Source: a virus
Direction: 5' to 3' (one strand)
Length of the DNA: 64,000 nucleotides
IMG/VR virus record: IMGVR_UViG_3300034200_001185
Span: 32,001-96,000 of that record
In this document: piece after piece, positions 2,791 through 50,944 of the stretch
Numbering within the stretch: the stretch's first letter is position 1
Layout: each line of letters begins with the position of its first letter
Translations under genes and position numbers: made by a program
The notes under the pieces: generated by a model
The model's input: only the letters and a program-made list of their open reading frames with translations
What the model was told of the DNA's origin: nothing
Databases searched by the model: none

Positions 2791-3258
2791 ATGATAGTTA
2801 GACAAGGAAACCGCTATCAGTTGATTTCACGAGACGGATCTAAGGTACTCGGAAATCACGATACTAAACAAAGCGCTATTAAGCAGGAACTCGCTATCGA
2901 ATATAGTAAGGCTAGAAAAGCGTTAAGCGAGAAAACTGCCGAAGTAGAGTATCGCGGGCAAACTTTCTCCGGTTATAATAAGCCTAAAGAAGCGCCTCCA
3001 GGTGATGTACATAAAATGGTCGTACTTGCTAAGAAAGGCGATCAAGTAAAAATCGTAAGATTCGGACATAGAGATTACGGGCATAACTATTCAAAAGACG
3101 CAAAAAGTAATTATTTACAAAGATCCGCAGGTATTCGGGATAAAAATGGTAATCTAACAAAAGATGATCCGTTTTCAGCTAACTATTGGGCGAGACGCGT
3201 TCTTTGGCCACAAAACAAAAAGGCAGACGGTAAAGCAAACTTAGGAGCAAATAAATGA
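2791..3258 (+). CDS. two-domain basic protein joined by SEKTA linker (C-terminal domain DUF6321-like)
   Basis: FSGYNKPK..HKMVVLAKKGDQVKIVRFG..FSANYWARR; family name from memory. Confidence 0.75.
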   Translation: MIVRQGNRYQLISRDGSKVLGNHDTKQSAIKQELAIEYSKARKALSEKTAEVEYRGQTFSGYNKPKEAPPGDVHKMVVLAKKGDQVKIVRFGHRDYGHNYSKDAKSNYLQRSAGIRDKNGNLTKDDPFSANYWARRVLWPQNKKADGKANLGANK

Positions 3259-4526
3259 ACGAACGATTGTATAATCTACTAAGCATGGAAAAAAACGCAG
3301 CAGATGCGTTGACCAGAGCAATTAGGTATGCACAAAAGCATGAAAATACCGTACAAAACTTGTACACACAATTGGGTAAAACCAAAAATCCTGCGCAGAA
3401 GCAAATTATTCAAGACCAGATAAATAGAGCACAGGCTAACTTGGATAAAGCGAAGAAGACAATGAGCAGCGCTCCTAAAGAGCGTTTGGCCGGCGCAACT
3501 GAGCATATAAGCAATGTTGACAAAACTAACAAGAGTATCTCAAAGCATATAGATGCTATTGAGAGTGATGATGTCACTAGAGCGTATCAACATAACATAA
3601 ATAATTTGAAGGGGAAGAGTAAAAACCTAAACGAGCAGTTAAATGCACAACAGCAACAAAAGCCAAAAAAAGAAGGCATTTTGTCTAGAATTAGAAACTT
3701 TATAACGGGCAACAATCCTAAAGAAATCGATAAAAATCAGTTGACACAGCAAAGGCTGATGGAGATGCAACCAATACGTAACGAACGTAGTAATATACAA
3801 AAAAAGCAGAAAGATATGGAATCTGGACTTAGAGAACGAAAAAAGCTACTGGGGAACTTAGAGCCAAATAAGAAGGCAAAGGACTATGTTGGCACAGTCG
3901 CTAAGGATCAGATGGCGGAATCCGCGTCAAGAAGTCGTGGGTATCAGAGCGAAAAAAGTGTAGGTCACGTCCACTTCTTAAACGATAAAGTAACCGAGAG
4001 TCAGGCAATTAATCAAGCGAATCAAAGTCGTAAGTTTTCGGGTGAAAAAAAGACTACCGTAGTTACTCCTAATTCTCGTGCCAAACATGATATAAGGGAA
4101 GGAGAGACGCTAGCAGAGGCGAGAAAAAGAAAGCTAGAAGAGAAAGAATTAGCTAAACAAAAGACCATCGAGCAGGTACAAGCGCAACAACCAGTAGTAC
4201 AAGCGCAACAACCCGTAGTACAAGCGCAACAACCCGTAGTACAAGCGCAACAACCCGTAGTACAAGCACAACAACCCGTAGTACAAGCGCAACAACCCGT
4301 AGTACAAGCACAACAACCCGTAGTACAAGCGCAACAACCCGTAGTACAAGCACAACAACCCGTAGTACAAGCACAACAGCCTTCAGGCCCTAGCATCGGA
4401 AACTTAGTTAATCCTAATTATGCATCTGATCCAAGCAACAATAAATATATGTGGCCTGTATTAGGTGGATCCGCTGGACTTCTTGCTGGGGGCTATGCCT
4501 TAGGACGATCCAATAACGACAGATAG
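3255..4526 (+). CDS. K-x-A tagged, tail-anchored coiled-coil protein
   Basis: SMEKNAA; (VQAQQPV)10; ends YMWPVLGGSAGLLAGGYALGRSNNDR. Confidence 0.85.
   Translation: MNERLYNLLSMEKNAADALTRAIRYAQKHENTVQNLYTQLGKTKNPAQKQIIQDQINRAQANLDKAKKTMSSAPKERLAGATEHISNVDKTNKSISKHIDAIESDDVTRAYQHNINNLKGKSKNLNEQLNAQQQQKPKKEGILSRIRNFITGNNPKEIDKNQLTQQRLMEMQPIRNERSNIQKKQKDMESGLRERKKLLGNLEPNKKAKDYVGTVAKDQMAESASRSRGYQSEKSVGHVHFLNDKVTESQAINQANQSRKFSGEKKTTVVTPNSRAKHDIREGETLAEARKRKLEEKELAKQKTIEQVQAQQPVVQAQQPVVQAQQPVVQAQQPVVQAQQPVVQAQQPVVQAQQPVVQAQQPVVQAQQPVVQAQQPSGPSIGNLVNPNYASDPSNNKYMWPVLGGSAGLLAGGYALGRSNNDR
4176..4385 (+). repeat. 10 x 21-bp coding tandem repeat (VQAQQPV)
   Basis: GTACAAGC(G/A)CAACAACCCGTA units. 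Confidence 0.95.
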
Positions 4527-4536
4527 GAGAATAAAA

Positions 4537-5763
4537 ATGAATGAGAGATTATATAACTGCATAGAGAAGTTAGCCGCTATTAGTAGCGTGAAAACTTTCA
4601 CTAACGCTAGAGATAAGTTCGTAAAAGGGCTTAAGAACATACAGAGGATAAGTTCCCAAGACGGAACACCTCAAGTAATTGGGAAAAGAATAGAAGACGC
4701 CTATGAGAAGAATCTAGATGCGTTTGTGCGTAATTCAGGTGTAAGTATGACACCAGAAGACAAGAAAAAACTTATTAGCGATTATCTACATTCCGATGGA
4801 AATAGAAATGACGCTCTTACCCACGTAAAAAACCTTTTCAAAAAGGATATGTCTGATGCGGATTCCACCGCATTTGAGGCTGGTATGCTTGGTAAAATGC
4901 AAGGAAAGGCTATTAATAATGCAAGGAAAGCCGGAAGAATAGCTGGCATCGATGCTAAGAATATGGGGGAATACGAAGTGAGTTCCGAACTAGCTCGGAA
5001 CTCAAGCGCAAGGGGCGACTTGTATCAGAAGAGAAACTTCTTGGAGGGTGATGTTACAAGAGTACAAGATATGAGAGAGAAAGCTCGAGATCTTAGAATT
5101 CAAAAGAAAGTAGAAGGGATTCATAACCCAACCATCAAACAACAAAAGATTGACGAGTTGGAAAAAATATACAACGACCATTCCAAATCGACACAAAAGG
5201 GGAGAAAGGGTAAAAGGATAACCGCTCACCAACGTATACGGGAAGGTTTTGATCCGAGAATAGGAGATTTGGATTCTAATAGCTCAGCACTGATGGATAG
5301 ACACAGACAGCTTTCGGACGCTAAAAAGGTATCGCCTGACCCAGTCGTACCACCAAAATCGCCTGACCCATTCGTACCACCAAAATCGCCTGACCCAGTC
5401 GTACCACCAAAATCGCCTGACCCAGTCGTACCACCAAAATCGCCTGACCCAGTCGTACCACCAAAATCGCCTGACCCAGCCTCACCATCCGATTTCAAAT
5501 CGCATAGAGAAGCTGAAACAGCAATTGAAAGATCAAACGAAAATTCGGAAAGAATGAGACAGATTTCTGGTAGAAATGATCACGATCATTATAACATCGG
5601 AGGTGGAGGCGGAGGCGGAGGTGGTGGCGGAAACCCTAAAACACATGTAACTACGAAAAAGAAAGACTATATGTGGCCTGTCCTTGCGGGTGTTGGCGCA
5701 GGCGCGGGTATAGGCGGACTATATTTGTATAACAAGAATAAGAAAAGAGATAAGGAAGATTAG
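4537..5763 (+). CDS. K-x-A tagged, tail-anchored protein
   Basis: MNERLYNCIEKLAA (same MNERLYN start as previous gene); SPDPVVPPK repeats; ends YMWPVLAGVGAGAGIGGLYLYNKNKK. Confidence 0.85.
   Translation: MNERLYNCIEKLAAISSVKTFTNARDKFVKGLKNIQRISSQDGTPQVIGKRIEDAYEKNLDAFVRNSGVSMTPEDKKKLISDYLHSDGNRNDALTHVKNLFKKDMSDADSTAFEAGMLGKMQGKAINNARKAGRIAGIDAKNMGEYEVSSELARNSSARGDLYQKRNFLEGDVTRVQDMREKARDLRIQKKVEGIHNPTIKQQKIDELEKIYNDHSKSTQKGRKGKRITAHQRIREGFDPRIGDLDSNSSALMDRHRQLSDAKKVSPDPVVPPKSPDPFVPPKSPDPVVPPKSPDPVVPPKSPDPVVPPKSPDPASPSDFKSHREAETAIERSNENSERMRQISGRNDHDHYNIGGGGGGGGGGGNPKTHVTTKKKDYMWPVLAGVGAGAGIGGLYLYNKNKKRDKED
5332..5478 (+). repeat. ~5.5 x 27-bp coding tandem repeat (SPDPVVPPK)
   Basis: TCGCCTGACCCAGTCGTACCACCAAAA units. 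Confidence 0.95.
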
Positions 5764-6695: not shown

Positions 6696-6730
6696 ACTAA
6701 AGACACACGTTCTTTTTCTTAGCCCTTTTT
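6696..6730 (+). terminator. intrinsic terminator of the conserved CTTAGCC-U-tract family
   Basis: TTTTTCTTAGCCCTTTTT downstream of the 5852 gene; same arm as minus-strand copies. Confidence 0.6.
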
Positions 6731-7090
6731 ATCATTCTTCTTTTTCAAATGGCGATATAATGCGTATCCACCAAGTCCTACCAAGCCGGCACCTATAATA
6801 GGTCTTAGCGTGTTATTCTTTTTTAAAGTATTCGGCGTTTCAATTCCTTTATCGTCCAACATGCTCATATAATCATGATCTCGCTTATTTACTCTTTCTA
6901 TCGTTTTATTGTATTCATCCATAGCATCGTCTAATTTCTTCTTCTGGATTTGAATTCTTTTATTCCGCTCTTCACCGCTTTTATTTAAATGATCACGTAA
7001 GTCGTCAGTGTATTTTTTTATTTCTTCAACACTCATATCTTTCGGATCTTTTGGCGGTTTTGGTATGGACGCACTCTTATGTAAATACAT
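6719..7090 (-). CDS. K-x-A tagged, tail-anchored small protein
   Basis: MYLHKSAS; ends PIIGAGLVGLGGYALYRHLKKK. Confidence 0.8.
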   Translation of the reverse strand: MYLHKSASIPKPPKDPKDMSVEEIKKYTDDLRDHLNKSGEERNKRIQIQKKKLDDAMDEYNKTIERVNKRDHDYMSMLDDKGIETPNTLKKNNTLRPIIGAGLVGLGGYALYRHLKKKNDKKG

Positions 7091-7094
7091 GTTA

Positions 7095-7379
7095 TTATCC
7101 TTTCTTATGATCGTGTAGATATAAACCGAGTCTACCGCCAGCTACCGCTCCTACTATACCTGCAGCAGGTATAGTCACTTTCCGATAATTCTTAAGAGCA
7201 TTGATTTTCTTCTCCGCTAGAGAATGAGCGGCTATCGCACCTATGGACATCGGAACTGCTCCGAGTAACGCCGCTGATTCTCTTTCTCTCTCAAGCTCTT
7301 TTGCGAGTAATTCTCTTCTTATCTTGTCTTGTCTGCTTATTCTGTCGTAAGCAATCTTAGTAAGATAGTAATCGCTCAT
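7095..7379 (-). CDS. K-x-A tagged Gly-zipper membrane protein
   Basis: YYLTKIAY; two Gly/Ala hydrophobic helices. Confidence 0.8.
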   Translation of the reverse strand: MSDYYLTKIAYDRISRQDKIRRELLAKELERERESAALLGAVPMSIGAIAAHSLAEKKINALKNYRKVTIPAAGIVGAVAGGRLGLYLHDHKKG

Positions 7380-8262: not shown

Positions 8263-9519
8263 CTAGTAATACTTAGCGTTTCCTTTAACCTTAGCGGAGC
8301 TTGTATTCGATATATACTGAGTATCTGCGTTTAACTTCTTATTGTCCGTTGCTACCTGCTCTTTGTGCGAAAGATTGTCCCACTTCTTCTTTGGTAGATA
8401 GCGTGATGTAGATCCGTCTGACTTCTGTGCGATTTCAGATGTGCCTGGTCGTGTTTGCCAATCTTGCTTTGTCCACTTACGCATGGAGTTATTTGCAGGC
8501 GTAGGCTTCTTACCGGAGTATGTACCGCCCTTATCCTTATACAGCTTAACGGCTAGCTGCATTGCTCTTGCGCTATGCTTTCCGCCCATTTTCGCTTTTG
8601 CTTCTTGCTTTGCCTGTTCCCACTTTTGTGGATCGCGCTTAACTGCAACTGCTGACGCTGTCTTCGTATTCGGCTCTTTTATGTACCAATGCATGCCTTC
8701 AACCATCGACTTGTTGCCCTTTACGTATCCAGCTTTTAAATGCGCTTTTATACTTGCAATATTTGTGTCTTCTATTAGCACTTTGGACTTCTTGTCAGCC
8801 ATATAATCACCGATTGCCTTAGAAGCTAAACCTTGTCCACGGTATTCCGGTCTTACGTATAAAGCGCCTACTCTATGATAACCATTCTCTTCTCTAGGCG
8901 TAAAGAATCCGACAACTTCATTATCCTTATGAATTGCTACTCTGTTTACCTTCTTATTTGGATATACGTAGCCTTCTATATCCTTATCCTTATTTGCATC
9001 TAATAGCAATTTTCTAGGAATAACAGAGGCTGTCTTCGTATGAACTGGTGTAAAGTATGTTAATCGATTGCCGATTGGGTCGTATATCGTTGAATCCCTA
9101 TCGCCCCATTCTCTTGTTGTTGGTTTACTTGCGTCTATGCCTTTATTGGATAAATACCGATGTGCCTTGTCTACGTTTTGTACTCTCTTACTCATTCGCC
9201 AAGGACTTGTTGAACGTTCTCCGTCGTGCATAAGCTCTATTACGGTATTCTTGCCTATCCTAAACATAGATCCCTTATCGCCTGGATCGTCCCAACTCGT
9301 TTCCTCTTCGAAACCTAGTTTATTATAAAAGTCTCTCGTTTTATAATAATCCTTTTCGTTCTTTATATACGTAATATGTCTCGAATCTTTAGACATAAGT
9401 GGATTTGATGACGCTATCTTCTCAAGCTCATCTATAAATGCGTATATCATGTATTCATTCATGTCGTTTCTTATCCTTGTTAGTGTTATCATACAAATAA
9501 CATAATACACGATAAACAA
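8263..9519 (-). CDS. multidomain protein: tag, VOC/glyoxalase, KTAS, GNAT acetyltransferase, KTAS, DUF5872-like basic domain
   Basis: VOC: TRDFYNKLGF..EWGDRDSTIYDPIGNRL; GNAT: LYVRPEYRGQGLASK..N.ASIKAHLKAGY; likely start 9462. Confidence 0.85.
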   Translation of the reverse strand: MFIVYYVICMITLTRIRNDMNEYMIYAFIDELEKIASSNPLMSKDSRHITYIKNEKDYYKTRDFYNKLGFEEETSWDDPGDKGSMFRIGKNTVIELMHDGERSTSPWRMSKRVQNVDKAHRYLSNKGIDASKPTTREWGDRDSTIYDPIGNRLTYFTPVHTKTASVIPRKLLLDANKDKDIEGYVYPNKKVNRVAIHKDNEVVGFFTPREENGYHRVGALYVRPEYRGQGLASKAIGDYMADKKSKVLIEDTNIASIKAHLKAGYVKGNKSMVEGMHWYIKEPNTKTASAVAVKRDPQKWEQAKQEAKAKMGGKHSARAMQLAVKLYKDKGGTYSGKKPTPANNSMRKWTKQDWQTRPGTSEIAQKSDGSTSRYLPKKKWDNLSHKEQVATDNKKLNADTQYISNTSSAKVKGNAKYY

Positions 9520-9824: not shown

Positions 9825-10838
9825 TTAGTCTTTATTACGGTTATATAAATACGCCCCAGCCCCCAAGCCTGCAGCACCAGTGCCACCTATAATATATTTA
9901 CCATAACGCTTTTTAGGCGCATCGGCAGTACTATGATTAGTGTTAGTAGGATGTGCTGAGTAATCTCCGGTCGCCTCTTGTATTACGGACTTAGCTTCGT
10001 TCTTAGCTTCGGTAGGTTGTACGGGTGCATCCACTTTCGCTTCTTGTATTACGGACTTAGCTTCGTTCTTAGCTTCGGTAGGTTGTACGGGTGTATCCGC
10101 TTTTGGGGCAGATCCTTTAATTCTAGCTTTCGCCTCTGCTAATGTTTCGCCTTCTCTTATATCGTATTTAGAACGTGCATTAGTAGTACCAGTAGTTATC
10201 GTTTTTTTGTGCGATGGGTCAAAGGGTTGTATTGGTATATCCGCTTTTGTGGTGGACCCTTTAATTCTAGCTTTCGCTTCTGCTAATGTTTCGCCTTCTC
10301 TTATATCGTATTTAGAACGTGCATTAGTAGTACCAGTAGTTATCGTTTTTTTGTGCGATGGGTCGAAGTTACTACCACCTACTTTACCGGAACCTGAACC
10401 GATTACGGGTGTGTGTGGCTTATTAAGTATCTCCATTCGCTTTAATCGTTCTTGTTCAGCAATATACCGGTCGCTTGCATTAAGCTCTGACACATGTTGC
10501 GCATTTCCTGTATAAGTATTATCCGCTATACTTCTAGGTTTTACATAACCAGTGGACTTACTCTCAACCGTTTCCATCAGAGATTTAGTTGTATTATGCA
10601 ACTTCATATTAATTTCGCCAGCTTGTCGCTTTAATATGGTTGCTTGTTCCAAACTCAACTTAGGATCGTTAGATTTAGCAAGCAATTTCTGCATTAGTTT
10701 TACGCCCTTGTTAATTGTCATATCACCGTGTCCCGGTATGTTGACTACTTTTTTACCAATGAATCCTGGTAGGGCCGTTTTAGTCATTTCAATGTTCGTA
10801 ATTGTTCTGTATAATCTAATTCTAGTATCTGTAAACAT
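9825..10838 (-). CDS. K-x-A tagged, tail-anchored protein with internal duplications
   Basis: MTKTAL; two duplicated blocks; ends KYIIGGTGAAGLGAGAYLYNRNKD. Confidence 0.85.
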   Translation of the reverse strand: MFTDTRIRLYRTITNIEMTKTALPGFIGKKVVNIPGHGDMTINKGVKLMQKLLAKSNDPKLSLEQATILKRQAGEINMKLHNTTKSLMETVESKSTGYVKPRSIADNTYTGNAQHVSELNASDRYIAEQERLKRMEILNKPHTPVIGSGSGKVGGSNFDPSHKKTITTGTTNARSKYDIREGETLAEAKARIKGSTTKADIPIQPFDPSHKKTITTGTTNARSKYDIREGETLAEAKARIKGSAPKADTPVQPTEAKNEAKSVIQEAKVDAPVQPTEAKNEAKSVIQEATGDYSAHPTNTNHSTADAPKKRYGKYIIGGTGAAGLGAGAYLYNRNKD

Positions 10839-11442: not shown

Positions 11443-12657
11443 ATGTCCGACAAATCTCTAAACGAGCATAAGTCGAAGAGAGAGCGAGAGGTTAAGTCTG
11501 GTTTGTACGGCGGTATTGCCGGTGCATTACTTTCAAACGCAGCTTATACTTCTGGACAGCTAGCTCTTGGAAAGTCTCACTCAAATGCCGAAAAGAGATC
11601 GCAATCATTCGGATCTGACTACAATAAAGTAGTCGGCAGTATGAATCATGTTAAAGATATAGCAGGCGGAGCATCTGCAGGCGGACATAGCATTTACCGT
11701 ACTCCTACCGGTAAAAGCATTATTATTACGAGAGCACATGAACACGATGCTACCTTTCCATCTTTTAGTTCGAGAACTGCTGTTAATGATTCTTTAAGAG
11801 GCGCTCAGGTAAAAACTCTTCGAGGTTTTCCAATCGATAAGGGCGGAGATAAGGTTCCGGGATTAGCAGAGTTAGAAGATTACATCAAAAGTAATAAGCG
11901 CGATCAGATTAATGTACTTGCAACTAAGGGCAACCATTCTATTCTACTCCATGAACTCGGACATTCTGCCGGTACAAGGCACGGTACAGCATCTGGTGCG
12001 TTAGTACGCCTTGGTAATATTAATCCGCCATCTATGGCTACGAAAGGTGTTGCAGCAACAGGCGCAATGCTTACACACCGTAGAGCAGGCGAGAGTAAGG
12101 AAGATTACGAAAAGAGATCTAAGAAGAACGCGATTAAGTCCGGCTTACTTGGAAGCGCTATGTATATTCCAACACTCGCAGAAGAGGCACGCGCTACATT
12201 AAATGCAAATCGTCTTGGTAAGAAGCTAGGCGTTAAGGTAGATAATCGTAAGTTACTTCTTCCAGCATACGGTACATATGTAGCAGGCGCACTTGCACCG
12301 ACAGCTGTCGCCCTTGGCGCACACTACGGTAAAAGATTTGTAGAGCGAGAGATGGAAAAGAAGTCGAGTATGATTAGCTCAAAGGGCGATATACATATGG
12401 GAGCCGTAGGCACTCGTGCTAAGCTTCTTAAGGTACACGAAGGTCTTAAACGACTAATGGGCGCAAGTGTAGGTGGCGCAGTCGGTCTCGCTGCTACAGA
12501 TAATCCGATAGGTATGCTCGGCGGTATGGTAGTAGGTGGCGTACTTCAACACTACGCATCTACAAAAGGAAATATCACTAAAGCGACTAAAGAGATCGAA
12601 GAAGAAGAACGCGCTTTACTTAAACAAATGATCATGCGTAAAAAGAAGAATAAATAA
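11443..12657 (+). CDS. putative zincin metallopeptidase with Gly-zipper helices
   Basis: LLHELGH and downstream EEARAT; MEKKSS linker before a C-terminal Gly-zipper domain. Confidence 0.7.
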   Translation: MSDKSLNEHKSKREREVKSGLYGGIAGALLSNAAYTSGQLALGKSHSNAEKRSQSFGSDYNKVVGSMNHVKDIAGGASAGGHSIYRTPTGKSIIITRAHEHDATFPSFSSRTAVNDSLRGAQVKTLRGFPIDKGGDKVPGLAELEDYIKSNKRDQINVLATKGNHSILLHELGHSAGTRHGTASGALVRLGNINPPSMATKGVAATGAMLTHRRAGESKEDYEKRSKKNAIKSGLLGSAMYIPTLAEEARATLNANRLGKKLGVKVDNRKLLLPAYGTYVAGALAPTAVALGAHYGKRFVEREMEKKSSMISSKGDIHMGAVGTRAKLLKVHEGLKRLMGASVGGAVGLAATDNPIGMLGGMVVGGVLQHYASTKGNITKATKEIEEEERALLKQMIMRKKKNK

Positions 12658-12689
12658 CACACGAATAGGATTAGGTATAAGATGTAATA

Positions 12690-12746
12690 TACGTATTCTT
12701 AAACGGAATAGGGGTAGGGCGGAGGTGTACGTATTCTTAAACGGAA
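12690..12746. repeat. 19-bp direct repeat TACGTATTCTTAAACGGAA x2
   Basis: Copies at 12690-12708 and 12728-12746. Confidence 0.9.
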
Positions 12747-12747
12747 G

Positions 12748-13260
12748 GGGGGCATGCGTAGATAGACGGCATACTACGTATGTTCAAGATTATACCGAAT
12801 ATAAGCAAGACGTTTATGTATACGCAAATAAATCGTATACTTTTTATTTATTAAGCGTTACCACCGAAAGTTCAGACAATATCATTCGCTCTTGATAATT
12901 ACTTGACCGTGACCGTGTAGCGTAATCATGTACGTTATACGGATGTCGTTACACTACGTGCTTGACTACGTTATTATAGCGTACTTGACTGCGTGTTTAT
13001 AGATGTAGTGTAAACCGTATTCATAAATCCACGTAATACAACGCTCAGGTTATCATTTACTTTTAGTACATACGAGCTGGCCATACGCGAAATCACACGC
13101 TCACACTTATACTCTCCCCCTTCGCTTAACAGTAACGCGTATGGCCGGGTCGGGTATATCTTTACGGTTAAGACGTAGGGGCTAGGGGGATTAGCGTCAG
13201 TACAGTGTACGGTTTATCGCCGGTCGAGTTGCCCAACCCATACGTTGAACGCATACCCCC
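12748..13260. ncRNA. candidate large structured ncRNA or replication origin
   Basis: No ORF >=60 aa; 12-bp end-to-end inverted repeat, nested 7-bp helix, internal 11-bp helix. Confidence 0.4.
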
Positions 13261-13305
13261 GCTTAATTTTTTTTAGGGTATAAAATCAAACGAACATGTT
13301 CGTTG

Positions 13306-14643
13306 TTACTTCTTACTCTTCTTAGCGTGTTCTAGTTGTTCGTTATAATATTCTTTCATACTCTTTTTACGTAGTACGTATGGTAACGATCCTACACCAA
13401 GAGACGCAATAGCAAGGTCTCGCTTAATTTTTTTACCTATGGGAGTATTATTTTGCATATGATCCTTCATAGTAGCCGTAGAAACTCCATGTCTCTTCGC
13501 TATAAAGAATAACGATGGGAACAGCGCACCACTCACTAACGTACCGGATCTTACTAGATCGTTTGCTTCCCTTTTAGCTGTTTCGGTGCCCGCAATAATT
13601 TGTTCGTCGGATAAGCTCGATTTCTTTTCTAGTTTAGCCTTGTTTTGCTCTTCTTTTAACTTATTACGTCTCCAAAGTTTCATAGCAGCGTATGTACCAG
13701 CACCGTAAGCTATAGGTCTACCTGCCGTACTTTTCCAATAACTAGCATACGACGCCTTGAGCGGATTAGTGTTTATTTTAATTCCTAACGCTTTAGCTCT
13801 ACGTATAGCGCCTAAGTTAGCTCTACCTTCTTCGATAACTTGACCTGGAGCGCTTAAAGCAGTAGCACCTAACGTAGCAAGTCCTATATTTTTACCCATA
13901 CGCTTTTGGTAGTCCTTTTCGCTCTCGTCATTACGCTTTTTAGCGGTTGCTAAGAATGCAGCACCTGGTGCCATAGCAACAATATTACCTATCGTACCTG
14001 GAGTACTCGGTAAATGATAATTAGAAATAAATTTTGACGATATGCCACTTCTAGAAGCGTGCGTCATCTCGTGTAACATAGTACCGGCTTCACCAGTATG
14101 ATGTATAGATCCGCTAAAGTTCTTATCGTTGTATAACTCTTTGAGGCGTTTACTAACATCCTCCTTTTTAAGCTTAGCAATCAACTGATCTCGTTGTTGT
14201 CTGATTTCAGGTAATTCGTCTCTATATACTGAACTCTCGGCTATTCGGAACTTTGTATTTGCCAACTGTTCTGGAGTAAGATTCTTGTAATCCAAGTCAA
14301 TTTTAGTATTGGCTAATTCGTGCATTTTATATTCATCGCCACGTTGATTCGTATGAATGCTTAATACCTTCTTACCGTTTTCAGGATCTGTAAGTATATG
14401 AATACCGTCGTCTAATTTTTCAGCCTTATACGCGTCATGTATTTTTTTAATCTCGCTAGGATTTCTATTAAATTTAGCCGTAGGACTATTACGGTTAATA
14501 TAATTAGATGCAGGGTCGAGGACTAGTTTCTTACCTGCAAGCACACCAGCTCCGGCTATACCAGCGATTTCTGCGTTTTCTTTTGCGTACTGTTTAAGCT
14601 TCTTGTGCTTATCTTCTTCCTTTTGTTTCTTGTCGTTTGACAT
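13306..14643 (-). CDS. putative zincin metallopeptidase, paralog of 11443
   Basis: MLHEMTH and IEEGRAN; shared ESKxDYxKR segment; LEKKSS linker. Confidence 0.7.
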   Translation of the reverse strand: MSNDKKQKEEDKHKKLKQYAKENAEIAGIAGAGVLAGKKLVLDPASNYINRNSPTAKFNRNPSEIKKIHDAYKAEKLDDGIHILTDPENGKKVLSIHTNQRGDEYKMHELANTKIDLDYKNLTPEQLANTKFRIAESSVYRDELPEIRQQRDQLIAKLKKEDVSKRLKELYNDKNFSGSIHHTGEAGTMLHEMTHASRSGISSKFISNYHLPSTPGTIGNIVAMAPGAAFLATAKKRNDESEKDYQKRMGKNIGLATLGATALSAPGQVIEEGRANLGAIRRAKALGIKINTNPLKASYASYWKSTAGRPIAYGAGTYAAMKLWRRNKLKEEQNKAKLEKKSSLSDEQIIAGTETAKREANDLVRSGTLVSGALFPSLFFIAKRHGVSTATMKDHMQNNTPIGKKIKRDLAIASLGVGSLPYVLRKKSMKEYYNEQLEHAKKSKK

Positions 14644-17178: not shown

Positions 17179-17745
17179 TTAGCTCTTTTGGTGGTGCGCT
17201 TTAAACTTACGTAATGCTTGCAACTTCATCTTATCGAACTTAGCGTATTCGTTATCCTTAGCTTTCGATGTATGTTCTAGGTCTCGAATGAGATCATCCA
17301 CATGTACGAATTCTGCACCTTCGAGTTGATCGCCTTCCTTACCAAGTAGGGATTTATCTCGCTGTCCCAAAGGAGCTGCCATAAAGTGCGATACTTCTCC
17401 GTGGAAGTCTCTTCCCTTTGCTAACGCTTGTTGGCGAAATGACTTATTCCAATTTACCTTCTTACTATACCCGAAGTGGTATGGATCGGAAGATGTTGAA
17501 TAGCCTGCCTCTTCGAGTAACTCTTTTCGAGTTGCTTCTGGTAAGCTCTCGCCTTGTTCCACGCCACCGCCTGGAAACTTATAGTTTGGATACTGACGCA
17601 AACCGCTACCAGATCCCTGACTTCTACTCGCTAAAATGCGCATGTCAGGTGTGTACAATAATGCTTGTACCTTAGGTCTGTATCGCTTTTCTTCCGCAAT
17701 CTTTTCAAGCTCGTCAACGAACGATTCAATTACTTTATTCTTCAT
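17179..17745 (-). CDS. Nudix hydrolase with N-terminal ESFVDELEKIA tag
   Basis: Nudix box FPGGGVEQGESLPEATRKELLEEAGY. Confidence 0.9.
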   Translation of the reverse strand: MKNKVIESFVDELEKIAEEKRYRPKVQALLYTPDMRILASRSQGSGSGLRQYPNYKFPGGGVEQGESLPEATRKELLEEAGYSTSSDPYHFGYSKKVNWNKSFRQQALAKGRDFHGEVSHFMAAPLGQRDKSLLGKEGDQLEGAEFVHVDDLIRDLEHTSKAKDNEYAKFDKMKLQALRKFKAHHQKS

Positions 17746-27459: not shown

Positions 27460-28209
27460 TCAAACATCTTTTAGCTTATTCTTAACCTTTCGTTTTAAAT
27501 CGTTCATAGGTTTGCTAGTATAAGCGTTAATTCCATGCTTAAACTCTTCAGATTCTAAAAAGTTTTTAATGTTTTTATTGATTACCTTTCGGTCTTTTTC
27601 CATGGGAGCCTCGTGGTGGAAATAGAAACCGCTAGTTTTCGTGAGCTTATCTTTGTCGTCGTACCCAGTCCCAAACGTTTTTCCAGCTAGGTAGGCAGCT
27701 GGTACGCCAGTAACAAAAGTACCGGCTCCGACAATAGCACTATTCTTAGCGCCTAAACCTTTAACAAAGCCTAACGGTGATTTTGCCAACGCTTTATACA
27801 TATCCTTCCTAGACATGAATTCCAAATCACCTCCTTTCCTACGTAGGTATTCCAATCCTAACGCAGCTCCTGCAGGCGTAGCTGCCCAACCGGCAGCTTG
27901 ACCGGCTGCAGCCCCTACGGCTTTGTTTTCGATGCCTTCATCGGCCCCAAGAGCTCCAAGAGCTGCGCTAGTAAATGCTTGCTTTTTAAACATAGATTTA
28001 TCTCCACGATTTTCAGACACAAGCCTAAATCGTATATTGCTTTTGTCATTTGTGCCACCGTTTTTAAGCGGTGTGATGTGATCTATTTCGTGACCTTTTG
28101 GTACTTCGCCTTTAAGGCGACGATTCCAAAGATTACGCATAGCTCTTTTTTTCTTTGCGTCAACAGACGCATGATCTCTTGCGTATTCTTTTTTATAATC
28201 ACGTGTCAT
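27460..28209 (-). CDS. HNH-like domain fused through KKQAF to Gly-zipper domain
   Basis: EIDHITPLKNGGTNDKSNIRF..SENR. Confidence 0.75.
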   Translation of the reverse strand: MTRDYKKEYARDHASVDAKKKRAMRNLWNRRLKGEVPKGHEIDHITPLKNGGTNDKSNIRFRLVSENRGDKSMFKKQAFTSAALGALGADEGIENKAVGAAAGQAAGWAATPAGAALGLEYLRRKGGDLEFMSRKDMYKALAKSPLGFVKGLGAKNSAIVGAGTFVTGVPAAYLAGKTFGTGYDDKDKLTKTSGFYFHHEAPMEKDRKVINKNIKNFLESEEFKHGINAYTSKPMNDLKRKVKNKLKDV

Positions 28210-47335: not shown

Positions 47336-49722
47336 GTACGTCCTTTTTAAGAATACGATGTTTTTTAGAAGGATACGAGATACCGATCATAAGCGCATCA
47401 GTGACTGCGTCTATGAACGACATTGCAAGAGCATCCGTAGAATTAATTGCTACGCCACAAGCATTACTCATTCGTCCTAAGACATCTATTCTTATATTCT
47501 TTCTAGAAGAAGCGGTAAGACCGCCAAATAGCTCTACGTCTGAAGTCAATAATAAGTATTATAAGTTATTCTTTTCTGGCGAGGTGCACGGTATATCGAT
47601 TAATAAATCAGCCGAAGGAAGAGTGCTTACGCTAACGTGCACAGACCATTTCGAGAATTTATCGAGAGCATATACTTACTACACCGAACAGCAAGCTAGC
47701 GTATCCAATCTGATTAATACCAAAGCGTACTTTGCAGCTGCCATGATTATCCAAAATAGTATTAATCAAGCAAACTTTACGCTACTAGAAGAAGTATTCA
47801 AAGATCCGAAACCTAAGTCGATTGGGTTTACAGACGCAAAAGGAATACTTGCTGCTATGATACGCATGATTGAATTGTACACCGGTATTATAGAACAGGG
47901 TACGACAGGTGCTAATGCGTTTTTCACACACCAACAAAACCGACTTAAAATACTCGAACAGATTACAATAGCGTCAGAAGATTTAGCGCCTCTCAAGATA
48001 TTTAAAGCAGACGTATTAGCCAACTTTGTAGGAAATACATACGGAAGACTTGGCGGACTTGTTAAAGTAATCGACGTCATTCAGATGATACTTTCGATCA
48101 TAGGATACGTTAGATGTCCGAATCCATTAGCAACTACTTTAACAGGAGGTGTTGAGAAAGAGATAAGCTTAACTCAAAAAGCAATAGATGCTAGAACATC
48201 ATTTGCAGATGGTTACAGGAATAATCAAACGGTTAACGAATCTTTAAGCTCGTATTTTGGAACACCTGAAATTGCTCGAAAGATATCAAACGCAATTGAT
48301 TCAGCAGACGCATTACGTATTCTGAAGGAAAATAACGTAATAAATTCTAAAGCGTACAACTATCTATCTACTACCGTAAAAGAAAGCGATCAGTTAGAAT
48401 TTCAAGTATCAATAGACGACGTTAGATCGGTTGCGACTGAGCTTTTAAATGCAAACGAATCTGATCCAAATAGGCTACCGACAGACGACTCTGGTATAAA
48501 CGCAGTGTTTTCAACAATGAGTAATGTTTCTTCTACTGCAACACGTATTACATCAAGTAAATTAAATAGTACGTTAATGATGCCAGACTTCTTATACGCA
48601 GATCCGCCTAAGTGTAATATACTATTTCCTTGTATGTACAACATGCTTAGCTTTAATCGACAAGCAGCTGACGAAACATCAAGACTACAAATGGTTACGA
48701 ATCTACAAGAGTTAGCACCGAATGCTGCAGGCGTGGACGAGCTTACTTACTTTTCTCCGTCCTTTCCATTTTTAAACGGATTACAAGGTAAAAAGCTATC
48801 GGAGAATTTATCGGTAGATGAACTTGTGAATCAACAATCGGATAACGGTAAATCGAGAGTAGGTTTAATCATGGACCACGAAATGTTTACAGGTGTTGTG
48901 CCTGAGTTTGCAAGCATGTCAAGACTCGCTATGCTAATCGATAATGGTAAAAATTACTCAGGGGAAACAACCGAAGAGGGACTTAATGGTAAGGATGATT
49001 ACTTTACTCGTTACGCGGACGCTATGTTTATACAACGTAGATTATCGCAACGTAGTATAAGTGCGTCCGGCCCATTTAATCCGTATCCAGTAGTTGGGTT
49101 TCCAATGTTAGTAATCGATCAAACAAGTCAAGGAGCAGAAACTGAGCAGTTTATAGGCGTATTACAATCGATTACTCATAGCATATCCCAATCCGGTGGA
49201 TCTACATCTTACTCAGTGATATACGCAAGACCTGTTAGCCTTGCAGACGATGAGTTTTTTAAGTACATGGATAAAGATCTTCGTGAAGCTTTAAAACCGA
49301 AATGGTTAGAATCTATATACGATGTAGACAAGGTAGGAGATGTTTATTGGGAATTAATTGGTAGCGAATCTATGTTTGTTAGAGGTAAGGATCAAAACGC
49401 AGTTATTGCAGATTTACAAAAAGAGTATGATGCGTTAAGATCAGAACAACAACGTAACTCGTTTTATCTAAGAATGTGCCGAAGAGAGATATGCTCTATG
49501 CAGTTTGCAAAAGACGTATTTTTCCAAAAGCCTTTAAAAGAAGTCGATAGATTATCTACGATAACACAGGTATGCGTTGGCGGTGCGTCACAAAACTTAG
49601 CAAATCATACTGAAACTGTTTCGTACCCTAAAAACGAATTTGAAGAAAAAGTAGACAACCAGAGAGTAAAAGCCGTAATAGATTACGCAAACTCGCTACA
49701 GACAAGGAGCTTAGTAAAATGA
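47332..49722 (+). CDS. putative baseplate hub protein (gp27-like)
   Basis: LEGYEIPIISASV..FSGEVHGISI..LTCTD; GPFNPYPVVGFP..GVLQSITHSI. Confidence 0.6.
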   Translation: MSTSFLRIRCFLEGYEIPIISASVTASMNDIARASVELIATPQALLIRPKTSILIFFLEEAVRPPNSSTSEVNNKYYKLFFSGEVHGISINKSAEGRVLTLTCTDHFENLSRAYTYYTEQQASVSNLINTKAYFAAAMIIQNSINQANFTLLEEVFKDPKPKSIGFTDAKGILAAMIRMIELYTGIIEQGTTGANAFFTHQQNRLKILEQITIASEDLAPLKIFKADVLANFVGNTYGRLGGLVKVIDVIQMILSIIGYVRCPNPLATTLTGGVEKEISLTQKAIDARTSFADGYRNNQTVNESLSSYFGTPEIARKISNAIDSADALRILKENNVINSKAYNYLSTTVKESDQLEFQVSIDDVRSVATELLNANESDPNRLPTDDSGINAVFSTMSNVSSTATRITSSKLNSTLMMPDFLYADPPKCNILFPCMYNMLSFNRQAADETSRLQMVTNLQELAPNAAGVDELTYFSPSFPFLNGLQGKKLSENLSVDELVNQQSDNGKSRVGLIMDHEMFTGVVPEFASMSRLAMLIDNGKNYSGETTEEGLNGKDDYFTRYADAMFIQRRLSQRSISASGPFNPYPVVGFPMLVIDQTSQGAETEQFIGVLQSITHSISQSGGSTSYSVIYARPVSLADDEFFKYMDKDLREALKPKWLESIYDVDKVGDVYWELIGSESMFVRGKDQNAVIADLQKEYDALRSEQQRNSFYLRMCRREICSMQFAKDVFFQKPLKEVDRLSTITQVCVGGASQNLANHTETVSYPKNEFEEKVDNQRVKAVIDYANSLQTRSLVK

Positions 49723-50114
49723 ATCAACTCGAAAGACAAACTATGTGGTCAGCGTTTTCTGACGAATTTGAAAAACTTGCTACACCTACAGGAGCGCAAA
49801 GATTCGCAGTCGGATCTGGCTTAGGCGCACTAGTAGGTGGTACAGTTGGATATAAACGAGGTGAAGGCGAAACTGCAACAGACGCTATGAGACGTGGTAT
49901 GCTACGTGGTATGGCTGTTGGTGGTTTGGGTGCGTATGTTGGACCTAAGATTAAAAACTATCCTAAAGCTTACGCACATGGTATTAAGCACGTAGGTGAA
50001 AACGCTGGCGCATACAAAGCACTAGGCGGTGTTGCTGCAGGTGGTGTTGCCGCGTTAGCTGCTAAGAAAGCGATCGAGAATAAGGTTCGCCAAGACATTC
50101 AAGAAGGACATTAA
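49719..50114 (+). CDS. K-x-A tagged Gly-zipper protein within tail module
   Basis: WSAFSDEFEKLAT; three Gly-rich helices. Confidence 0.8.
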   Translation: MNQLERQTMWSAFSDEFEKLATPTGAQRFAVGSGLGALVGGTVGYKRGEGETATDAMRRGMLRGMAVGGLGAYVGPKIKNYPKAYAHGIKHVGENAGAYKALGGVAAGGVAALAAKKAIENKVRQDIQEGH

Positions 50115-50116
50115 CA

Positions 50117-50944
50117 ATGAATGAGTTAGAGAAGTTTCTACTTTCGGGAGTAGAGAAAAAAGCAAGCATGGATACGTTTGTATTAAATTCTCTAACTCCT
50201 ATGGTAGAAGGCGTTGAGCCTGTAGTATCAGACGCTGAGAAAAAGAACGAGCATGAACTCTGGAAGAAATGGAAAGAATCGAATTACAATCCGATGTACC
50301 TCCGTCCCTTACAAGACTCATTTAAAAATCTAATATTCTTTCACGTAAATAAGTGGAAATCCGTAAATATACCTACTCGCTTAATACAAGCGGAGGCTGA
50401 AAAGCAATTTATAGACGGACTTAAAACTTATAATCCAAATAAAGGTGCCGCGCTTGCTACACACTTGAACACCGTTTTAAGTAGAATGGCGAGATTTATT
50501 ATTGCGCACCAGAATATGGGTCGCGTGGTAGAAGGTCGTGCGGGCAAAGCGTTTAGTAATCTTAAGACGGCTAAGAATTTATTCATAGAAGAATTCGGTA
50601 GAGAGCCAAATGCGCAAGAGCTTGCTCAAAAGGTTTCGTTTGAATACAAGCTTGCATGTACGCCAAACGATGCTAAGGCTTTCCTAAAAGAAGATCGAAG
50701 AGACTTGTCAATTGGAGACGAAGAAGCTGATTTTACATTCGAGGCTCCAGCTAATCGTATGCTACTTATGATGTTGCCTGCGGAACTTACGCTAGAAGAA
50801 AATCAAGTATTCGAAAGATTATTTGGTATTAACGGATGTAAGAAACTTGAGAAGGGACAGATTGCGAAGCAATTACGTATACACCCGTCTAAAGTTAGTA
50901 GAATTATCGCAAGTATTCGTGAAAAGTTGGAGAAGTATCAATGA
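50117..50944 (+). CDS. phage RNA polymerase sigma70-family factor
   Basis: Region 2 YNPNKGAALATHL; region 3 GREPNAQELA; region 4 HTH LTLEENQVF..IAKQLRIHPSKVSRI. Confidence 0.85.
   Translation: MNELEKFLLSGVEKKASMDTFVLNSLTPMVEGVEPVVSDAEKKNEHELWKKWKESNYNPMYLRPLQDSFKNLIFFHVNKWKSVNIPTRLIQAEAEKQFIDGLKTYNPNKGAALATHLNTVLSRMARFIIAHQNMGRVVEGRAGKAFSNLKTAKNLFIEEFGREPNAQELAQKVSFEYKLACTPNDAKAFLKEDRRDLSIGDEEADFTFEAPANRMLLMMLPAELTLEENQVFERLFGINGCKKLEKGQIAKQLRIHPSKVSRIIASIREKLEKYQ

Follow-up and report, generated by a model that had tools for sequence, protein, structure and literature searches.

Why does a single phage gene hold three disparate domains, with nearly the same short peptide at the start of each? 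The gene lies on the minus strand of a 64,000-nucleotide stretch of viral DNA (the window), bases 32001-96000 of the IMG/VR record IMGVR_UViG_3300034200_001185, and joins a VOC domain, a GNAT acetyltransferase and a DUF5872-like domain behind a short leader. The original prediction proposed that one leader packages three cargoes, which are released by the maturation protease. This proposal is supported by the placement of the motif at the junctions, by the shuffled modules of the homologues, and by the presence of the motif on the capsid protein, on scaffold-like proteins and on the protease. From these sequence comparisons, we consider it likely that the gene encodes a virion-cargo polyprotein that is processed in trans by the prohead protease of the phage.

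The longer open reading frame (ORF) at 8263-9519 (-) comprises 418 residues when counted from TTG 9519. We place the start of the gene at ATG 9462 (MNEY...) because close homologues begin there, each with a leader of 17 residues; the equivalent ATG is used by the homologues P0001-P0004 and P0006. An AGGA sequence is located 11 nt upstream of ATG 9462. The resulting layout is given in Table 1. The coordinates originally proposed for the motif, and its occurrence at each junction (EKIAS, TKTAS and TKTAS), were correct to within one codon. The leader is acidic and all three modules are basic, with isoelectric points (pI) of 9.1-10.1. A low-confidence AlphaFold2 (AF2) model places a helix at residues 3-19, and we regard the leader of 17 residues as a candidate capsid-targeting propeptide.

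Table 1. Coordinates of the polyprotein gene, its parts and two associated genes; positions refer to the window unless stated otherwise, and residues are numbered from ATG 9462 for the polyprotein.
Feature	Position	Strand	Details
Whole gene	8263..9462	-	399 codons + stop; precursor 45.6 kDa, pI 9.6
Leader	9412..9462	-	residues 1-17; acidic, MNEYMIYAFIDELEKIA, pI 4.1, predicted helix
Site 0, E-K-I-A-S, leader/VOC junction	9409..9423	-	residues 14-18; fits genome-wide Φ-E-K-x-A consensus
Module 1, VOC/glyoxalase-bleomycin-resistance fold	9028..9411	-	residues 18-145, 15.0 kDa, pI 9.1
Site 1, T-K-T-A-S, VOC/GNAT junction	9025..9039	-	residues 142-146
Module 2, minimal GNAT acetyltransferase	8656..9027	-	residues 146-269, 14.0 kDa, pI 9.5
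Site 2, T-K-T-A-S, GNAT/DUF5872 junction	8653..8667	-	residues 266-270
Module 3, basic DUF5872-like domain	8266..8655	-	residues 270-399, 14.6 kDa, pI 10.1
Paralogous leader + single-cargo NUDIX protein	17179..17745	-	SFVDELEKIAE, then NUDIX domain residues 22-157
Head-maturation protease	genome (L001) 12384-14261, outside the window		625 residues; phrog_18299, E 6.9e-10

The VOC and GNAT assignments of the original prediction were also upheld. The Pfam model Glyoxalase (PF00903) matched residues 37-134 over model positions 10-119 of 121 with 28.8 bits (cut-off 20.6), and the GNAT region matched PF13508 with 34.6 bits (cut-off 27) and PF00583 with 32.6 bits (cut-off 20.7), as well as phrog_1249. 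The nearest solved relatives of the VOC module are the uncharacterised protein 4hc5 (E 2e-4) and the mitomycin-binding protein MRD (E 5e-3). Foldseek aligned the AF2 model of the GNAT module to SpeG, PA4794 and PA2578 with a probability of 1.00, yet with template modelling (TM) scores of only ~0.4-0.57, and the structural neighbours are generic, including polyamine and protein acetyltransferases. The C-terminal third matches phrog_14910 and resembles DUF5872 clusters (Atlas score 0.94; DUF5872 is found on 14-62% of cluster members). The family PF19197 was not listed for the target or for the relative P0027 in a Pfam scan with E up to 1, and precomputed matches to it are present on several homologues. 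DUF5872 is a promiscuous module that occurs beside many other enzymes. Our searches found no solved relative of DUF5872 and no description of its function in the literature. Scans against Pfam, PHROGs and NCBIfam revealed no peptidase family in the polyprotein.

If the repeated peptide separates independent units, such units may be sought in relatives of the gene. A search of 5.8 billion proteins returned 175 matches within the length range of the query, and the closest of these relatives, which come from metagenomes, were cut in silico after K-x-A to obtain a module map. Cutting in this manner yields clean modules, and the same lengths recur in differing contexts among the relatives. The query and P0001 share the arrangement leader 17, VOC 128, GNAT 124 and DUF5872 130. 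In P0002, found on separate contigs of three independent sequencing runs or samples, a P-loop kinase of 172 residues separates VOC from GNAT and is flanked by HTKTAS at both ends. The GNAT domain is missing from P0003 (leader, VOC, DUF5872), and other modules are present in P0004-P0006. Further arrangements include leader, GNAT, kinase and additional modules in P0016; leader, DUF5872 and GNAT in P0071; and leader, SNF2 helicase and DUF5872 in P0033. Longer chains of 700-1796 residues contain NUDIX, PAP2, kinase, SNF2, DnaJ and flavodoxin-like reductase modules, with one site per 100-180 residues. Domain content and order therefore vary in the homologues while K-x-A is kept at the junctions, and the motif is retained at the amino-acid level in relatives that are only ~50% identical.

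The DUF5872 boundary was counted explicitly. Upstream sequence of 15 residues or more is present for 113 DUF5872 modules; 99 of these carry K-x-A in the 12 residues before the domain, compared with 10.8% of random windows, and most of the exceptions have K-x-S. None of the four DUF5872 modules situated at a protein N-terminus has the motif, which indicates that the motif is a property of the junction and not of the domain. The modules also occur singly. An exhaustive HMMER search found more than 100 relatives of the GNAT module and a few of the VOC module, and stand-alone proteins with a K-x-A leader were represented by P0153, P0166, P0183 and P0226 (GNAT) and by P0154 (VOC); a word-based search had found no short stand-alone relatives, though this exhaustive search did find some. 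In this genome, a leader likewise precedes a single enzyme, the NUDIX protein of Table 1; NUDIX is a frequent module inside the polyproteins of relatives and is a separate gene here. Among cultured phages, tblastn matched the DUF5872 part to the Synechococcus phages S-CRES1/2 and the GNAT part to the Burkholderia phage FLC9, in each case separately only. A further gene of the window (27460-28209, minus strand) encodes an HNH endonuclease-like protein (PF01844, E 1.4e-4). Because its N-terminal part (..KKRAMRNLWNRRLKGEVPKGHEIDH..) closely resembles a module within the polyproteins P0008 and P0010, this polyprotein module appears to occur as a separate gene.

The two internal sites were then located relative to the folded parts of the protein. 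Stand-alone GNAT relatives end at ..W(Y/F)xK(E/P), 2-4 residues ahead of site 2, and their conserved core (IPxxLL) begins 2 residues past site 1. An AF2 model of residues 130-290, built on a GNAT-only alignment, has a predicted local distance difference test (pLDDT) score of 88.5. In this model, site 1 is disordered, with pLDDT below 50 just upstream and the first helix 4 residues after the site, and site 2 lies 4 residues past the last GNAT strand and ahead of the first DUF5872 helix. In both the alignments and this model, K-T-A-S is therefore found at the edges of the homology domains and is not buried. Because of the model and the ends of the stand-alone relatives, the sites are predicted to lie outside the folded cores. 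A deeper MAFFT alignment was discarded; it misplaced GNAT and VOC relatives onto the DUF5872 region.

Is the motif confined to this gene? The record comprises 133,533 bp with 41% G+C, and 155 ORFs were called in the whole genome, giving a proteome of 42,046 residues. The ends of the record overlap, so that the assembly is circular or terminally redundant; its first and last ~170 bases repeat each other. The genome is that of a tailed phage, with the genes for the large terminase, the head-maturation protease and an HK97-type major capsid protein all upstream of the window; long tail and baseplate genes are also present. No close cultured phage was found, and the terminase is ~30% identical to those of Bacillus phages and of the Salmonella phage Arash. 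The motif Φ-E-K-x-A occurs 24 times in the whole proteome, compared with 4.1±2.1 in within-protein shuffles, and 15 of these occurrences are in the first 50 residues, compared with 0.9±0.9 in the shuffles. Of the 30 occurrences of E-K-x-A in the genome, 17 lie in the first 50 residues, and in nearly all cases the residue before the motif is hydrophobic. TKTAS is found three times (0.06 expected), two of them in the polyprotein gene, and KTAS seven times (1.0 expected). These statistics rule out a chance repeat or a frame artefact. Because T substitutes for E in a further set of sites (TKVA, TKLA, TKIA, TKTA and TKYA), TKTAS is assigned to the same motif family.

The head-maturation protease is itself among the carriers of the motif, as are the capsid protein (..GRSKLAA..) and small coiled-coil, scaffold-like proteins encoded in the head module. 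The target leader YAFIDELEKIAS is nearly identical to the leaders of a head-module protein of 75 residues (AFFDELEKIAG), of the NUDIX protein (SFVDELEKIAE) and of a baseplate-module protein (AFSDEFEKLAT), and leaders of the type AF(I/F/V)DEL-x-K-(I/L)-A are also found on other proteins of the genome and on distant homologues.

The protease gene is located between the genes for the large terminase and the capsid protein. Its catalytic region spans ~230 residues, of which residues 90-232 match head-maturation proteases, and the motif occurs at residue 34 near the N-terminus and at residues 234 and 252, directly after the catalytic domain. Across the clade alignment, His110 and Ser166 are invariant, and a Cys/His-rich insert is present. 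This insert (Cys-x2-Cys...Cys-x-His) resembles a zinc site, and the C-terminal extension of ~370 residues that follows the K-x-A sites is possibly scaffold-like. Over the N-terminal 240 residues, the protease shares 42% identity with those of the Vibrio phages D69, D181 and D148, 46% with gp222 of Arash, 37% with gp19 of the Bacillus phage G, and ~28% with capsid maturation proteases of Gordonia and Mycobacterium phages. Two of the homologues, one from the Gordonia phage Pupper and the other gp19 of phage G, bear the annotation capsid maturation protease; a multi-omics paper on phage G names gp19 as the head maturation protease and does not state its specificity (PMC12484599). Searches of the PDB by sequence or profile linked the protease to no solved structure, Pfam and NCBIfam yielded nothing for it, and no other protease was recognised among the phage proteins scanned.

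The association between this protease and the motif extends across the clade, whose cultured members infect Salmonella, Vibrio and Bacillus. Arash gp222, the D69 protease, phage G gp19 and the protease of this phage have in common an L-x-K-x-A close to the N-terminus and, just past the domain, VLEK(I/V)AS. The head modules of Arash and D69 are dense in Φ-x-K-x-A-[SAG], and their capsid proteins have GL(V/T)KEAG at residue 27. A pattern scan of IMG/VR found at least 314 contigs with this protease, and 80 loci were fetched. In these loci, K-x-A stands 9-10 residues before (I/V)R-x-K-(L/I)-R-E in all 32 unique capsid homologues that bear this anchor, with capsid homologue identities down to ~25%, and the first 50 residues of the ORFs contain the N-terminal motif 386 times compared with 47±7.7, an eight-fold excess. 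An IMG/VR contig with a DUF5872 relative also encodes the protease. Because capsid proteins, scaffold-like proteins and proteases bear the motif across the clade, we read it as a signature of prohead-protease sites. No description of the K-x-A motif was found in the literature. As a separate observation, in Arash (134842-159408) and D69 the proteins between the portal-like and capsid genes have up to 10 evenly spaced copies of Φ-x-K-x-A-[SA], such as LVKEAS and LEKAAA; these motif-rich proteins look like a scaffold that is chopped into small pieces. In the first 50 kb of Arash, no N-terminal motif carriers were found.

These observations suggest the following scheme. The acidic helical leader ending in E-K-I-A would bring the precursor into the assembling prohead, where the phage's own head-maturation serine protease would recognise (Φ)-[E/T]-K-x-A-[S/A/G/E] and cut all three copies. 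The cuts would release three basic proteins of ~14-15 kDa, namely a VOC-fold protein that is drug-binding-like, a minimal GNAT and DUF5872, which would stay in the head with the DNA and would probably enter the host along with it. We propose that relatives can swap, insert and reorder modules behind one leader because the junction motif suffices for processing. The existence of a leader with a single enzyme, both here (NUDIX) and elsewhere (GNAT or VOC), is in line with this scheme. So is the report that virions of the cultured relative Arash contain 116 proteins, among them the β, β' and σ subunits of RNA polymerase and several enzymes (PMC10585845). Cleavage, packaging, ejection and enzymatic targets are what we infer from the comparisons above. 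That the scissile bond follows the Ala is a guess by analogy with the A|S site of herpesvirus assemblin, and that the acetyltransferase acts on host defence or translation proteins, as the original prediction suggested, is speculation.

The alternative that survives best is that the gene product is a stable multidomain ('polyvalent') protein, from which only the leader is removed or which is not cleaved at all. K-T-A-S would then represent conserved flexible linkers or docking motifs, and the domains would function together, in the virion or in the cell, as a single protein of 43 kDa. Several points weigh against the processed polyprotein, and some of them favour this alternative. In phage SPN3US, the best-studied analogue, every cleavage detected, other than self-cleavage of the protease, removes an N-terminal propeptide and does not separate domains (PMC10052503), and packaging without processing is possible for polyvalent proteins such as the virion RNA polymerase of N4 (PMC5512222). 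At the internal sites, K follows T instead of E, and the hydrophobic residue of the leader consensus is missing; because of these deviations the sites could be poorer substrates. Site 2 is partly helical in the AF2 model, with pLDDT falling from 82 to 65, and a full-length AF2 model on a mosaic alignment (pLDDT 53.5) is too poor to judge the linkers. Bare K-x-A carries little information and is not enriched in several long homologues; the loose count of K-x-A-x does not rise above shuffles in several that are rich in K and A and is uninformative there. BLAST breakpoints fall within 5 residues of the motif in 15% of cases compared with 8%, a weak result of a noisy, crude test that was replaced by the explicit module map and the DUF5872-boundary count. 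The list of Arash virion proteins looks permissive, and the paper is silent on proteolytic processing and on peptide-level termini (PMC10585845). However, if K-T-A-S were a mere linker, nothing would explain why it retains the K-x-A with which the propeptides of the protease, the capsid protein and the scaffold-like proteins end, or why it vanishes exactly when a module becomes N-terminal. Moreover, the three modules occur in any order and in any combination and have no functional tie that requires their fusion. We therefore consider a stable multidomain protein unlikely.

According to a second alternative, the chain is cleaved by a different protease, of the host or the phage, in the cytoplasm, and its products are not capsid cargo. 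The position of the gene is compatible with this possibility, since it sits on the minus strand outside the head module, amid small membrane-anchored-looking proteins. However, the capsid protein carries the motif, copies of it lie on both sides of the catalytic domain of the head-maturation protease, it is conserved across a protease-sharing clade whose cultured members have hosts as different as Salmonella, Vibrio and Bacillus, and the phage proteins scanned gave no other candidate protease; cleavage by another enzyme is accordingly quite improbable.

The DNA of the junctions bears on a third alternative. Both internal junctions share 13 identical nucleotides (ATACGAAGACAGC), including synonymous codon choices, and gene conversion in this genome, or a recent exchange of modules, may account for the identity. 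A recent internal duplication was ruled out, the flanks of the two TKTAS sites being unrelated. In the relative P0002, the three junctions encode K-T-A-S with different codons. Because the codons vary between relatives while K-T-A-S is kept, selection appears to act on the peptide. That the junction is a by-product of module exchange at the DNA level, a recombination microhomology with no role in the protein, is consistent with the shared nucleotides and with the clear exchange of modules between relatives, but we give it very little credence in view of the P0002 codons, the conservation of the motif as amino acids in diverged relatives, and the same peptide at the N-termini of single-domain head proteins, where module exchange is not involved.

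Several neighbouring genes are recorded here as observations in their own right. A family of leader-bearing, tail-anchored-looking proteins surrounds the polyprotein gene (9825-10838, 385-1071, 3255-4526, 4537-5763, 6719-7090 and 7095-7379). The protein at 9825-10838 (-), of 337 residues, begins with ..NIEMTKTALPG, contains an exact internal tandem repeat of ~40 residues (DPSHKKTITTGTTNARSKYDIREGETLAEAKARIKGS) and a second repeat (PVQPTEAKNEAKSVIQEA), and ends with a Gly-rich hydrophobic helix followed by YLYNRNKD. Two proteins of the baseplate module, at 50117-50944 (+) and 49719-50114 (+), have the K-x-A leaders ..SGVEKKAS.. and ..AFSDEFEKLAT.., and the first has a weak match to Sigma70_r3 (E 0.0075); Arash virions have been reported to contain a sigma factor from the equivalent baseplate module (PMC10585845). 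A giant RpoB/RpoC-like ORF crosses the ends of the record (L004:14971-17533 and L001:38-3877, pieces of 854 and 1279 residues) and includes the motif GRYGNKG. As has been reported for Arash, the phage probably encodes a multisubunit-type RNA polymerase of its own, and by analogy this enzyme may be packaged in the virion.

A broader and distinctly doubtful extension is that a large undescribed clade, comprising at least 314 IMG/VR contigs together with Arash, phage G and Vibrio D69-type phages, uses a 'cargo grammar' in which the tag AFxDELxK(I/L)A and K-x-A junctions load small enzymes. The cargoes, namely a mitomycin/bleomycin-binding-like VOC, GNAT, P-loop kinase, NUDIX and NAD(P)H-quinone reductase, form a detoxification-like set and would suggest a kit, delivered by the virion, that shields the incoming DNA from small-molecule (chemical) defence of the host. 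Under such a grammar, any number of small enzymes could be strung together for loading into the capsid and for release by the prohead protease.

How does the proposed polyprotein compare with known systems? In phage T4, the internal proteins IPI-III and Alt, which are otherwise unrelated, mostly basic and include an enzyme, are directed into the prohead by a short N-terminal tag. This tag, which ends in (L/I)-x-E, the motif of the prohead protease gp21, is cleaved off, and injection of the DNA carries the cargo with it. The present gene is similar in having tag-directed cargo and a tag that ends in a protease motif, with cleavage predicted from the sequence. However, T4 devotes one gene and one cleavage to each cargo, whereas one tag serves three cargoes here and internal sites are present; the two systems also differ in the motif, here [E/T]-K-x-A, and in the family of the protease, here phrog_18299. 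The concept of the capsid-targeting sequence is cited in PMC5694885 and PMC9026906. In phiKZ and SPN3US, a short motif common to many of the head and ejection proteins is cut by the prohead proteases gp175 and gp245, respectively; the internal proteins include a virion RNA polymerase, and some propeptides are cut several times (PMC10052503). The motif of these phages is A/S/G-x-E in contrast to K-x-A, and neither the release of multiple enzymes from one chain nor module shuffling has been described there.

Polyvalent proteins of phages and conjugative elements, as defined by Iyer, Burroughs, Anand, de Souza and Aravind in 2017, combine unrelated effector domains, including GNATs, kinases and helicases (PMC5512222). 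They are predicted to travel with the DNA and show extensive mosaicism, and their processing by an embedded zincin-like metallopeptidase (MPTase) has been proposed (PMC5512222). The gene studied here resembles them in placing at least two disparate effector domains (VOC, GNAT and DUF5872) in one chain and in having mosaic relatives. Unlike them, it has no embedded peptidase and instead has the motif of a trans-acting prohead protease at every junction; furthermore, its modules are small (~125-130 residues) and the domain set is different (VOC, DUF5872 and NUDIX).

The capsid maturation serine protease of herpesviruses, assemblin, cuts itself and the scaffold at (V/L/I)-x-A|S, with Ala at P1 and Ser at P1', and K-x-A-S resembles this site in its Ala followed by Ser. 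However, PDB searches gave no sequence link between the proteases, and the herpesvirus site has no known counterpart to the conserved Lys two residues before Ala. As in the polyproteins of RNA viruses, one chain carries short repeated candidate protease motifs between its proteins, but the virus is a double-stranded DNA tailed phage, the protease lies outside the chain, and the likely purpose is to package the cargoes together in the capsid, not to economise on the genome. Tailed phages are known to bring a few proteins into the head by means of a cleavable tag. No description of a trans-processed, freely recombining enzyme polyprotein was found in the literature searched. If the processed polyprotein is real, the leader and the K-x-A rule would predict the injected proteome of an uncultured clade of phages of 130-210 kb, would account for the hundreds of unrelated domains fused to DUF5872, and would provide a very small tag and linker with which proteins of choice could be loaded into capsids. 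The gene appears to combine the propeptide processing known from T4 and phiKZ with the theme of the polyvalent proteins, and would thus represent a new variation on known kinds.

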